Source: Octopus vulgaris (lineage: Eukaryota). From it: a stretch of 64,000 nucleotides of DNA. Both the position numbers and the translations under genes were made by a program. The stretch spans positions 18,972,001-19,036,000 of the forward strand of contig OX597821.1 of the NCBI GenBank assembly GCA_951406725.2. Direction: 5' to 3'. Positions 20,491 through 27,220 of this stretch are shown here, in pieces. Under the pieces are notes generated by a model that was not told the origin of the DNA, did not search any database, and worked only from the letters and a program-made list of their open reading frames with translations. Each line of letters begins with the position of its first letter. The first letter of the stretch is position 1.

Positions 20491-20551
20491 GTATTTTACT
20501 CTTTTACTTGTTTCAGTCATTTGACTGCGGCCATACTGGAGCAACGCCTAT

Positions 20552-20849: not shown

Positions 20850-22174
<1,325 letters not shown>

Positions 22175-22266
22175 ACTTAGATAAACTTAGATATGTTTCG
22201 AACAAAGATTGGTCCAGGCCATGTCTAACTTAATAGCACCACCTGATGGGATTATTCGAATCCTGT

Positions 22267-25231
22267 TTAAGTCAAGTTTTGTTCAAGTAGTGAGTTCTTG
22301 TTGGGTGAGTTGTATCCAATTATGGGTGGCTTATCTGGTATTCTTTGAAGGAATCTATCCAGACTCTGTTTAAAGTTGATGGGATCCTTTTCCTCTTTAA
22401 TCTCCCTCGGGGCAATGTTAAATAGGGCAGGGCCTGTTGAGGAAAAGAAATTATGTTGCAGTGTACATGTATGTTGTGATCTTGAATTGGGCAGGGGACG
22501 TATAGCCCGTGGTCCAAGTCTTGGATGAACCTTGAAGCTAATGTTTAGGTTGTTTGGGCAAAGTTGGCGGTATATTTTCCACATCGTACAAATGATGTAC
22601 CGCTCACGGCGACGCTGGAGGGAGTAAAGTTTCAAGGCTTTAAGGTGATCCCAATAATCGAGAGCAGCCATGCCTTCAATTTGTTTAGTGAGTGCCCTCT
22701 GGGGTGACTCAATTCTGGAGATGTTTTGTCTTGTGTGAGGAGACCACAGTGGGCAGCAGTATTCAAGGTGTGGCCGTACAAAGGAGGAAAAAAGTGGTAT
22801 GATGACACCTTGTTCTCTGGACCGGAAAGTTCTTAAGATCCAGGAACTCATCCTACGAGCTATATCGACCTTCTTGTTGATGTGTGCACTCCAACTGAGA
22901 TCGTCATCAACAATTACACCCAGGTCTCTGATATTGTTAGAGGCTGTGAGCGGTTCCCCTGAAGGAAGAGTGTATGGTTGTTTTAGTGAGGAATTTCTTC
23001 CAAAATGCATCAGCTCAAATTTTCCCTCGTTCAGTTGCATTTTGTTTCTGTCTGCCCATTGACTCACAGCATATAGATCAGACTGGAGTTGAGTTCGGTC
23101 TGCTTCTTCATTGACGATTTGCTGGAGCTTAGTGTCATCAGCAAATATTTTCACTTTGCAGTAATGTACGACACTGGAAAGGTCGTTTACGTAAATTATG
23201 AAGAGTAGCGGACCCAAAACAGTTCCCTGGGGAACACCGCTGGTGACTTTTGCTGGGTTTGAGTGGACTCCATCAACTACAACATGTTGTGTTCTATTCG
23301 CCAGGAAATACTTAATCCAGTGTAGAACTTTTCCACGGATTCCAACGTTTGCCAATTTTGAGAGTAGGATGTTATGGTCTACCCTGTCGAACGCTTTACT
23401 GAAGTCAAGATATATGACGTCAGAGTTCGAACCTGTTCCCAAGGCTTTGAGTACATCTTCAATGTGGTGTAAGAGCTGTGTTAGACAGTCCCTGCCACAG
23501 CGAAAGCCATGCTGATTTGCATTTAGGAGTTTGTGGGTCTCCAGGAAGTCAGCTATCCTTGATCTTAACACTCTTTCAAACACTTTAATGATGTGGGAGG
23601 TGAGTGAGATTGGGCGATAGTTGACTGCGAGGGGTCTGTTTCCCTGTTTGAAAACCGGGATGACCGACTGGGATAGAAACTGCGTCTAACGAATTTCTCC
23701 AGAGGTTGGTCAGAGGGACTGCAAGTTGGTATCTACATTCCTTCAGGAGACTAGCGGGAAATCTATCAGGGCCTACAGCAGAGTAATGTTTGACCTCATT
23801 TATTGCTGCTACGATGTCGGTGGCAGTGAAGGTTATGTCTGAGATTTTGTGTTGGGAGTCAACTTCGTTCGTTTCCCTTACGTCAATATCAGTGGGAACA
23901 CTAAAGACAGAGCAGTATTGTTTCTGCAGTATTTCTGCCATTTCTTTAGCATCGTGTTGGGGAATGCCGTTATCATCAATCAATGGCCCAATGGGTGAGA
24001 CAGTGGTTCTATGCTTATTTGCATAAGAATAGAACACTTTTGGGTTCTGTTTGATGTTTTTGATTACCCATTGTTCCTCCACAGCTCTTTGATTTTCAAT
24101 GGAGGTTTTCATGTTGGTCTGCAGATGAAGTTTTTCCAGCTCTAGACTTTTCATTGTTGTTGAATGTGGATGTTGTGTGTGGGAATATTTTAATTGGTTG
24201 ATTTTTTTGTTGAGTCTTTTGATGCGCCTGATGAGTGTTTTTTTCTTTTTAGGGAGCCGGTTTCTGTTTGTGTTAGTAGATTTCTTGGGAGCGTGTTTAG
24301 AGCATGTATAGGTGACAATGTTTTCAAAGTGCTGCCACGCGGTCTCAATATGAGAGGAATTGAGAGTAAAAGACCAGTCGATGGAAGACAGATCCTTTCT
24401 GATTGTTCCCCAGTCCGCTTTGTGGAAGTTTATGTTGTCAAATGGGTGCCATGGAGTGGGATTGGCTGGTTTGGTTTTTATATGTCGGGAATTAAGATTG
24501 CAGAGTACCATGTCGTGGTCTGAGAGGAGAGTTTTTTCGACTGAAATACTGTGAACGTAGCTAGAGTGATTGGTCAATACCAGATCCAAGATCGTTTTAT
24601 TCTGTCTCGTTGGTTCAAGCACTAGCTGAGTCAGGAAATACTCATCCATCAGATTAAAAAGCAGTTCTGCTGCTGCTCTATCTGATGTAGATCACTTGCC
24701 GAACTTCAGAGTATTTGTGGGCCAGTTCACATGAGGGAGGTTAAAATCACCCATCACTAGTATGTTTCCGGAGTGGTACTTCCGAAGGAAGGACTTGACT
24801 TTGCTAAGGCACTCTTCAAAGTACTTTAGAGGTGCCTGGGGAGGCCTGTAAAGACCAACAATGGTTATGTCCTTGGCTTTGTTGTATAGTGATACCGATT
24901 CACAGTAGCCATTGGAAAATATGTCCTTGGCATCAAGTGAAAAGGAGTCATGGATAAAGATGGCTGTCCCTCCCTTATTTCGGTCTGTGCGATCCGCACG
25001 AACAATGGTGAAATCTTTTATTTTCACCTCTGCGTCCATATGGGTGTCGTTCAGGTGAGTCTCGGTAAGGATAAAGAAAGGGAAGCAATGTGCCATTTCG
25101 GCAAGCCAACTCTCTATATATGGGATCTTCCATTTTTGGGCAATAATTGATGGGTTGATGCCACGTACATTTAACAGGAATGTCGAGGTAAGGGAAGTTG
25201 GTAATGGGTGAGTGGTCCTTGTGATTTGCAT
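22267..25231 (-). pseudogene. LINE ORF2: APE endonuclease plus reverse transcriptase, with one in-frame TGA and one frameshifting deletion
   Basis: APE motifs LLNVRGI, LTETHL, GGTAIFI, GLYRPP, MGDFNLP, EPTRQNKTILDLVLTN, SDH. RT motifs NQHGFR, LDFSKAFDRVDH, GVPQGTVLGPLLF, FADDTKL, LYSLQRRRERY. ORFs 24692-25231 and 23585-24649 share a frame (TGA at 24692-24694); frameshift near 23665. Confidence 0.92.
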
Positions 25232-26442
25232 AGATGGTTGGTGATAGCTCGCTGGATCTCCTGGCTTAGGTCGGCCTTCATATTTTCTATGTATGTCAGT
25301 AAAAAAGAGTTACTTGTTTGGTTTGCCACTTGGTCAGAGGATACATATTTCATGTTGGCGTTATTTGGTGTTTTTTCATGGTTCTGTCTACGTTGTTTGA
25401 TTGTAGGAGGGGAAACGTGGTTGTATTTTGTTCTTGTTGTTGTCTTGGATTTCCTCTGTTCCTGTTTATATTTATTCTGTGATCGTTTTGTGCCCTTCAG
25501 ATGGTGGTGGTTGCATTCTGGGTTCAAGCACATCCTTTGTGAGACAGAAGTTTGGCACAGTTTAGGATGGAATAAGGTGCATCCATTGCCTTTTATGCAT
25601 CCGTATTTAGGATCAGAACCATAGATTCTGTATTTAGGACAGTATTTGGGGTGGAGGTGGGGGCAATTTTTTCCTGTTATCCCGTATGGACAGGTGCCCA
25701 TAACAAGTCTACGACATAAGGTCGGATGGGAAAAAGCACAGCGTCCATTGTTGTTTGTGCCGCTGGGGCCAAATCTACAATTGCCTTTAGAATAGTAACG
25801 GCAGGGGGTTTTATTTGGTTGTAGTAGTGGTTTTTCTATTCTGGCAGTAGTAACAGTAGTGTTAGAAGCAGTTTGTTGATTTTATGATGGTGGGTTCTGG
25901 CTTGCCAGGATGTGGCCAAATCTGCAGCTGCCTTGAATGTAGTAATGGCAGATAGTTTTACGTGGATGTAGTAGTGATTTTCCTATTGTGGCAGTAGTAG
26001 TAGTGGAGAGTTGTTTTTGTTGTAGCAGCATTGGAACTTGACTAGTGGTAGTATTAGAGTGTTGTTGTTGTTGTTTTTGTTGCTGTAGCGAAGGTGAAAC
26101 TTGACTTGGTTCATCAGGTGCTGTTGTTAATGGAAGTAGGTCAGTTGATTGTTGCTGTTGAAGTGACCCCTGACCTGTTGGAATTTGGTCATTTGGTATA
26201 CTGGATTCGTTGGCAAGAATGGTTCTCAGTGTAGCCATGTGCGCGTGAAAAATAGGGAATATCCTAACAATTTCTTTTATTTTATTTTCTATCTGTTTTA
26301 CAGATCTGTGAAAGGATTTTTTCGTTAAAATCTCTGTTATTTTACTGTAAACATTAGCTTCGTTGTGATGGATGAACCAAGCGTTAATCATTGCAGTAAT
26401 TTCATTTTCAACCCAGCGGCGTTTTTGAAAATTATTGGCCAT
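25171..26442 (-). pseudogene. LINE ORF1 (~423 aa): Myb/SANT-like N-terminus, Gln/Thr-rich linker and tandem CCCH zinc fingers, with one premature TAA
   Basis: ORFs 25882-26511 and 25171-25701 share a frame and are separated only by TAA at 25882-25884. N-terminus RRWVENEITAMINAW...NVYSKITEIL...RSVKQIENKIK. Fingers: CRYYSKGNCRFG...CAFSH, CRRLVMGTCPYG...CPHLH, CPKY...GCIKGNGCTLFH, CQTS...CLNPECNHHH. Confidence 0.8.
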
Positions 26443-26864
26443 ATTCAGTGGGGTAGTGTTGTGTAATATATATATGTATGTATGTGTATGCGTGTATATG
26501 TATATGTACACCGTTTATTGATGGCTTGATGTAAAATAGTGAATACACCGTTGAAAAGTTTGTGTCGATATACTCGGTAAATAGTGAATACACGGAAATA
26601 CTCGGAAATTCGTGGCTTGTGTGTGTGAGAGTTCAGTGTAATTGGTACAATCTAATTAGTACAATCAGGATGAGCGGTGTGTTTAATACAGATCAAGAAA
26701 AAAGAATTGTACTCACGGGACTAGTTTTAGAACTAGTCTTGGGTTTAGTATTTAGTTTTGGGTTGTAATTCTTTCTTTCTTCAGGTTGTATATAGATTTG
26801 TATAAATTTATCCTCCGATGGTAGTAAAAGAGTAGTATAGTAGGATTGTAGAGTTCAAAAGTTT

Positions 26865-26910
<46 letters not shown>

Positions 26911-26912
<2 letters not shown>

Positions 26913-27216
26913 AGGCGCAATGGTCCCATCGTTAGGGCAGCTGACTCGCGGTCGTAGGATTGTGGTATCGATTCCCAGACCGGGAATTGTAAGTGTTTAT
27001 TGAGCGAAAACACCTAACCCTCCACGAGGCTCCGGCATGGGGTGGTGGTGAACTCTGCTGTACTCTTTCGCCACAACTTCCTCTCACTCTTTCTTCTGTT
27101 GGCCTGCTTGCTCAGCCAGTGGGGTGGCGTCATTCGAAGGCTAAAACAATGCGAAGCGCATTGTGATCAGCGATGTGTAGCAACATCTGACAGCCTGGTC
27201 GGTCACGGTGATCACG

Positions 27217-27220
<4 letters not shown>
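26911..27220 (+). mobile_element. tRNA-derived SINE with the same head as 14191-14572 but a different 3' tail, inserted in (TA)n
   Basis: Head ggaggcgcaatgg...cgattcccagaccggg; tail ends ggtcacggtgatcacggtga. Confidence 0.8.

Follow-up and report, generated by a model that had tools for sequence, protein, structure and literature searches.

The closest described relatives of the element reported here are CR1-lineage long interspersed elements (LINEs) whose first open reading frame (ORF1) encodes PHD fingers (types III and V; Metcalfe and Casane 2014, PMC4120745). In the accessible part of that paper, these have two ORFs, an apurinic/apyrimidinic endonuclease (APE) with a reverse transcriptase (RT), and a modular ORF1; the ORF1 table given there lists PHD, RRM, CCHC, Tnp22, esterase, zf/lz and coiled-coil forms, with neither a CCCH cassette nor a Myb/SANT domain, and the authors proposed that ORF1s are exchanged between lineages by 5' capture. 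An N-terminal Myb domain with zinc fingers on the RT polypeptide is known from R2, which, in the excerpt of PMC12503042, has a single ORF, is strictly specific for rDNA and uses a restriction-like endonuclease. Here we describe a CR1-like LINE of Octopus vulgaris in whose ORF1 a Myb/SANT-like head precedes a cassette of Cys3His (CCCH) zinc fingers. It was found in a 64,000-nucleotide stretch of DNA (hereafter the window; assembly GCA_951406725.2, contig OX597821.1, positions 18,972,001 to 19,036,000 of the forward strand).

Read through its stop (window 26442..25174, minus strand, X at the stop), ORF1 consists of the Myb/SANT-like head, a Q/T-rich linker, a half finger, four Cys3His fingers and a conserved C-terminal stretch. 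A preliminary description, made from the letters alone, had joined two ORFs of one frame across one stop into a protein of about 423 amino acids, and that joining was correct, with the one stop at codon 187. This stop was found in 1/20 loci readable there (among L001-L030), namely the window copy itself; programmed read-through was therefore rejected. The possibility that the architecture is an artefact of a single copy was also rejected, given intact copies and many genome matches. Both ORFs are open in copies L064, L065 and L066, and in a search of the 2.8-Gb genome the head and the fingers were each matched by 150/150 scored candidates, counts that should be taken as minimum values and that take in some weak matches to other families. 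The nearest named proteins to ORF1 were Octopus vulgaris hypotheticals.

By sequence comparison and structural modelling, the head is a Myb/SANT-like domain of family PF13837, as had been suggested from its residue pattern. The N-terminal 60 residues of the window copy matched Myb_DNA-bind_4 in Pfam with an E-value of 1e-5 and 26.3 bits, below the cut-off of 27, and the same region of an intact copy (80 amino acids) scored 28.5 bits, above it. PF13837 was matched by 10/10 members of the first head alignment, and 37/43 genome-wide matches above the cut-off lay at family A places (family A being that of the window copy). The AlphaFold2 (AF2) model shows three helices with a predicted local distance difference test score (pLDDT) of 89. 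Its nearest folds were the GT-1 trihelix domain, SANT, TEAD and Zeste: the top Foldseek rows were the GT-1 DNA-binding domain, with a probability of 0.93 but an E-value of 0.63, and the top VIA row was the SANT domain of DNAJC2 (Z 7.0, root-mean-square deviation 4.0, 69 aligned residues). Atlas agreed on the head at a borderline score of 0.90 (166 shared features), and hhalign gave 93.6% for a genomic Myb/SANT-like ORF against the head. Residues W10, E14, W22, R46, Q50, I51, H68 and L72 were invariant in 17/17 heads; the two tryptophans of helix 1 are thus kept, and that of helix 2 is replaced.

Some observations weigh against the reading of the head developed below. The scores against folds in the Protein Data Bank (PDB) were all weak, as is expected for a domain of 80 residues, and a PDB sequence search with the head profile found no Myb relative. 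Compared with a canonical member, the head lacks about nine residues after helix 1 as well as the helix 2 tryptophan, and it is only mildly basic (net charge +1 to +5). The ratio of nonsynonymous to synonymous substitution (dN/dS) was 0.15-0.20 in the head versus 0.45-0.81 in the linker, 0.17 in the endonuclease and 0.13 in the RT (two family A subfamily pairs), and 0.45-0.49 in the fingers, above the head (between A subfamilies); these values come from single genomic copies, which is a further point on that side. On these values, the head is under purifying selection.

The expectation of one partial and four complete CCCH fingers was borne out by the Cys3His spacing read from the sequence: C165-x7-C-x3-H in the half finger, then C214-x7-C-x12-C-x3-H, C243-x7-C-x8-C-x3-H, C268-x13-C-x5-C-x3-H and C296-x8-C-x4-C-x3-H in fingers 1 to 4. 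Every Pfam CCCH match in ORF1 fell below the cut-off. The Cys3His pattern was invariant across 92 aligned proteins, and the models of the last three fingers had pLDDT values of 85-98, with the first near 50-59. Atlas placed zf-CCCH in its top rows for the fingers at 0.88, which serves as a lead only, and matches to CPSF30 were weak. The internal duplication that had also been pointed out is real and subfamily-specific, as it is present in intact copies of the window subfamily and missing from the sister-subfamily copy L073.

We then considered how far each half of this ORF1 extends beyond the octopus. The finger cassette retrieved 1,635 protein clusters at an E-value of 0.001 from 1.84 billion representatives, and the best 150 of these all matched through the fingers and the C-terminal stretch; the head profile matched 0/150 of them. 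Among the relatives listed, 75/100 proteins of at least 340 residues (the window protein counted in) fitted a PHD-like pattern, a label based on the Cys/His pattern and weak PDB matches, with Pfam reporting a PHD family at an E-value of 0.001 in only 1 of 40 PHD-type relatives. In 3/3 metagenome loci, such an ORF1 lay directly before an endonuclease, 34-45% identical to the family A ORF2. Homology of the Myb head with the helical N-terminus of PHD-type ORF1s was rejected (hhalign 2.3%). On these comparisons, the usual form of this ORF1 is a helical domain, a PHD-like finger and the CCCH cassette, in place of which the octopus families have the Myb head before the fingers, and the cassette itself is an old and common ORF1 module. 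Because the relatives mostly carry a PHD-like finger before the same cassette, the Myb head appears to have replaced the PHD-like module. The fusion of Myb and CCCH, put forward as special in the preliminary description, is therefore so only in part: the head does stand in the place of the PHD-like finger, and the cassette is widespread.

Within the genome, the head was found beyond the window copy; it is family-wide and selected, and is carried by five families, A to E, spread across two distant lineages of the second ORF (ORF2). Outside this genome, the scoring of 7,984 candidates yielded only five proteins, all of Octopus vulgaris, so the evidence that the head is absent elsewhere is weak. 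The families differ in their fingers: A has four and a half, C and D each have the last type twice, and B and E have one. A sixth family of the same genome, F, has a PHD-type ORF1 with the CCCH cassette. Family F (L295-L310) is young and looks like a hybrid of two lineages: its 5' untranslated region (UTR), reached by 6/16 loci, contains a decayed Myb-type reading frame without a start codon, together with a partial duplicate. This remnant is 41-53% identical to the C and D heads and 29% to the A head. The ORF2 of F is 38-39% identical to those of C and D and 37% to that of A, and grouping it with C and D was rejected (approximately unbiased test, p 1e-16).

In trees of 26-27 rows, 20 of them picked by hand out of 120 homologues, A, C and D joined marine elements of the PHD type (98/95), with B and E outside this group. 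A single clade of the Myb families was not rejected without F (p 0.47) and was rejected with F (p 0.0015); this group was named after earlier trees had been seen, and non-monophyly is likely rather than proven. The decayed Myb ORF in the 5' UTR of a PHD-type family is evidence that a 5' module moves between LINE lineages, and a remnant close to the C and D heads beside an ORF2 that does not group with theirs would fit the 5' capture route proposed in PMC4120745, as far as its accessible text describes it. Synonymous distance was 0.53-0.59 in the head versus 0.16-0.25 in the fingers and ORF2. Copy L064, compared with L073, L075 and L076, has two to three times more synonymous divergence in the 5' part of ORF1 than in its fingers and ORF2, which suggests 5' replacement between subfamilies. 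Many copies of family D (L252-L257, L266 and L267) are 97-99% alike with both ORFs open, and the family is probably still active.

A second feature of these families, which the preliminary description had missed, concerns the junction of the two ORFs. The heptamer U_UUU_UUA encodes the Phe-Leu that opens the C-terminal stretch of ORF1, and in the -1 frame a stop lies one to five codons upstream of the heptamer, after which this frame is open into the endonuclease (in B and in one A subfamily copy, the reading ended before the endonuclease motif). The heptamer was present in all readable copies of the following families: A 27/30, B 8/12, C 4/4, D 7/8 and F 15/16 loci, the motif being lacking or not reached in the remainder. 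Locus L191 has U_UUU_UUA and L193 has G_GAU_UUU; both heptamers are known viral -1 shift sites, of HIV and an umbravirus, respectively, where an overlapping -1 frame likewise begins at the in-phase heptamer (PMC5009743, in its accessible part). Under each family's own codon usage, the chance of the heptamer is about 1% per lineage, although the lineages share ancestry and a product of these chances would overstate the case. D, F, L191 and L193 lack a Met codon ahead of the endonuclease. The in-phase, conserved heptamer and the lack of an AUG for ORF2 in several families make it likely that a programmed -1 slip fuses the Myb head and CCCH fingers to the endonuclease and RT.

Three results speak against such a slip. 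Family E has U_UUU_UUG (2) or C_UUU_UUG (1), of 5 loci; reinitiation is possible in A, B, C and E, where a Met precedes the endonuclease; and no stimulatory RNA structure was found 3' of the heptamer by local, pseudoknot-free folding, in contrast to the hairpin or pseudoknot downstream of the viral sites. The local folds behind the heptamer ranged from -3.5 to -14.4 kcal/mol and were dissimilar between families. Base pairing between the slip site and the distant 3' end was rejected as a candidate signal (rank 13/85 for A, and 45-73 of 84-92 in the five remaining families). In L061, L258 and four further places, ORF1 and ORF2 lie in one frame of 1,364-1,468 codons, L061 through a 2-base loss at the slip site and L258 through an earlier switch of frame. 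In marine relatives, the conserved D/S/H/T-F-L may owe its conservation to the same slip signal.

The head is also predicted to dimerize, another point that the preliminary description lacked. Two copies gave a score of 0.52 versus 0.02 for the best control, which passes the tool's mark; in calibration, that mark was passed by 21/30 solved pairs and 0/23 single chains in microbes, and by 7/16 animal pairs. The runs agreed in at least 93% of contacts with pLDDT of at least 80. In the predicted interface, the far half of helix 3 packs against helix 1 of the partner, so that the invariant W22, H68 and L72 fall inside it; residues 46-57 are unlisted, and R46, Q50, I51 and K54 of the presumed recognition helix, invariant or nearly so, lie outside. 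That the pass may reflect memory of solved structures counts against the prediction. An N-terminal dimerization module is known from ZfL2-1 ORF1p, which, as described in the accessible part of PMC3905857, has a coiled coil and an esterase, with no CCCH or Myb domain.

From these results, we consider it an even bet that the head, in the place of the PHD-like finger, acts as a self-pairing, loosely specific grip of ORF1p on DNA or chromatin that a predicted ORF1-ORF2 fusion would share. ORF1p would coat the element RNA through its CCCH fingers and assemble through the head, perhaps also through the C-terminal stretch. Most ribosomes would complete ORF1, and a minority would slip by -1 at U_UUU_UUA to produce a Myb-CCCH-APE-RT protein. 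Pairing through the long third helix would let this fusion co-assemble with ORF1p and carry the endonuclease and RT into the particle, where the free helix-turn-helix may tether the complex to DNA or chromatin with little sequence preference; a chromatin-holding job has been suggested for PHD fingers (PMC4120745, in part). The choice of the exact site would fall chiefly to the endonuclease, together with the 3' tail, which would pair with AT-rich repeats.

The preliminary description had instead proposed target selection by ORF1, that is, a head that reads (TA)n or related repeats sequence-specifically, as the Myb and zinc fingers of R2 do for rDNA. We scored TA-type repeats at 3' ends and at the 5' ends of truncated copies (30 loci per 3'-end search; query copies, nine near-identical RTE2 loci including the query and one short contig were excluded). 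Families A (17/29 at 3' ends, 12/22 at 5' ends) and B (22/28 and 9/18) were indeed far above the background of 6-9%, and the PHD-type family F, with its decayed Myb ORF, was lower (6/29, p 0.007 vs A; 4/17, p 0.10), a comparison confounded by its different endonuclease, tail and age, with 3' flanks that may gain repeats after insertion. A fused dimeric head would also suit a palindromic repeat. However, two RTE families, in which the head profile found no match in 15 loci, landed in such repeats as often (RTE1 17/29 and 9/16; RTE2 18/21 and 9/16; p 1.0 for RTE vs A at the 5' end), so the bias can arise without the head, and the earlier proposal was not upheld. Moreover, the type of repeat matches the 3' tail (RTE2 goes into TATG), heads just 30% alike share one preference, and 10/22 truncated A copies had no TA-type repeat at the 5' junction, unlike a target-specific LINE. 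A sequence-specific reading of (TA)n by the head is therefore unlikely. We are similarly doubtful of a broader, R2-like version, in which a captured head on an APE enzyme would be joined by frameshifting, dimerize ORF1p, steer to TA microsatellites and be traded between distant lineages as an alternative to PHD. The likeness to R2, which would hold if the frameshift occurs, is one of architecture; the octopus LINE differs in having an APE, a Myb of the trihelix type and CCCH fingers, and its insertions are dispersed. That (TA)n is part of the element's tail was rejected, since it also lies 5' of truncated copies and other repeat types occur. In L074:2130-9371, L099 and L129, A and C copies face each other with their tails on either side of a single (TA)n run.

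The head might also be purely structural, dimerizing ORF1p and binding ORF2 or import factors with its DNA binding lost. The position of W22, H68 and L72 in the predicted interface would fit this, as would the N-terminal dimers of ZfL2-1 ORF1p (PMC3905857, in part) and the SANT domain in the best VIA row. Harbinger Myb-like proteins and MSANTD genes, which share the Pfam family and three-helix pattern of the head, provide a precedent: in the accessible text of PMC9392472, the former bind and import their transposase, although these are separate genes of a DNA transposon or host, and the octopus head belongs to a LINE ORF1 and has a long dimer helix. Yet R46, Q50, I51 and K54 are kept outside the listed interface, and replacement of a PHD-like finger suggests a chromatin role, so that we find a purely structural head rather improbable. 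Least credible to us is a head that recognizes the 5' end of its own element, much as Harbinger Myb-like proteins bind their terminal repeats, and that regulates transcription or the joining of the second strand. A short 5'-terminal motif is common to A, C, D and F by eye, and the head and 5' UTR travel together, as seen in the synonymous distances and in the captured remnant of F; however, F retains the motif with its reading frame lost, and the 5' regions of B and E look different.

The window copy itself is dead, with a stop in ORF1 and a stop and a frameshift in ORF2 (Table 1), and about 120 bp are missing at its 5' end. By its sequence, the element is a CR1-like LINE: ORF2 has the APE endonuclease followed by the RT, and the 3' tail is a short tandem repeat, with frequent 5' truncation and a copy depth that climbs steeply towards the 3' end. 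At an E-value of 0.01, Pfam reported only RT and endonuclease families in ORF2, RNase H and a C-terminal CCHC were not found, and no C-terminal Cys motif was seen in the ORF2 sequence. The RT was 37-41% identical to stork RT proteins, which we take to be CR1, versus 28% to RTE, these being the only references compared. Thirteen recently active CR1 families have been reported in Octopus vulgaris, with ORFs or domains unmentioned in the accessible part of PMC13282606.

Table 1. Features of the LINE copy and its junctions (window coordinates).
Feature	Position	Strand	Remark
CR1-like LINE copy, family A	22175..26870	minus	95-98% identity to other copies
(TA)n, 5' junction	26871..26910	none	
ORF1, 423 codons	25171..26442	minus	private stop at codon 187
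Myb/SANT-like three-helix domain, long third helix, residues 8-79	26206..26421	minus	predicted homodimer
Half finger	25912..25950	minus	subfamily-specific duplicate of finger 1
Premature stop	25882..25884	minus	codon 187, window copy only
Four tandem Cys3His fingers	25501..25803	minus	last three form the widespread cassette
Conserved C-terminal amphipathic stretch	25231..25311	minus	likely helix; overlaps ORF2 frame
U_UUU_UUA heptamer, start of open -1 frame	25300..25306	minus	candidate programmed frameshift site
ORF2, APE endonuclease and RT	22267..25309	minus	broken near 24692 and 23680
Short 3' UTR	22175..22266	minus	tail is a short tandem repeat, without poly(A)
(TA)n, 3' junction	21947..22174	none	

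Several further observations concern neighbouring or related copies. A short repeat, probably a short interspersed element (SINE), lies at 26911-27219 within the same (TA)n run that adjoins the 5' end of the LINE. The 3' tails of B and E (L085, L258, L260 and L262; window ~20510-20545) resemble by eye the tail of an abundant short repeat, a SINE of which B and E may be the partner LINEs. A 3' UTR core is common to families A, C and D. A composite unit of an RTE, a family A 5' part and another RT element is near-identical on several contigs (L080, L092-L094 and L161-L169). In L071-L073, three truncated A copies each adjoin a 742-codon ORF for a protein that looks multi-membrane-spanning, in a local duplication.

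In the literature searched, which leaves Repbase, Dfam and subscription journals outside, we found no description of a CCCH ORF1, a Myb ORF1 or this ORF1/ORF2 slip site. Neither "Myb" nor "CCCH" occurs in the accessible portions of PMC13343379 or PMC5203782, and among non-LTR elements that of PMC5009743 names only HeT-A, TART and L1. This ORF1 variant of CR1-like LINEs is real, selected and apparently undescribed, although Repbase and Dfam may hold the families. Roles of ORF1p beyond RNA binding are still open even for L1 (PMC12503042, in part), and that of the PHD finger in CR1 ORF1s is untested in the accessible part of PMC4120745.

Taken together, the CCCH-cassette ORF1 is a type that is common in sequence collections and missing from ORF1 classifications such as that of PMC4120745, as far as the latter is accessible. 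In the octopus families, capture of a 5' module across lineages is visible, and their ORF junction is a candidate for a Gag-Pol-like frameshift in CR1-like LINEs of invertebrates. With young, intact families that share the CCCH cassette and carry either a Myb or a PHD-like head, the part that ORF1 plays in where a LINE lands becomes testable by domain swap.

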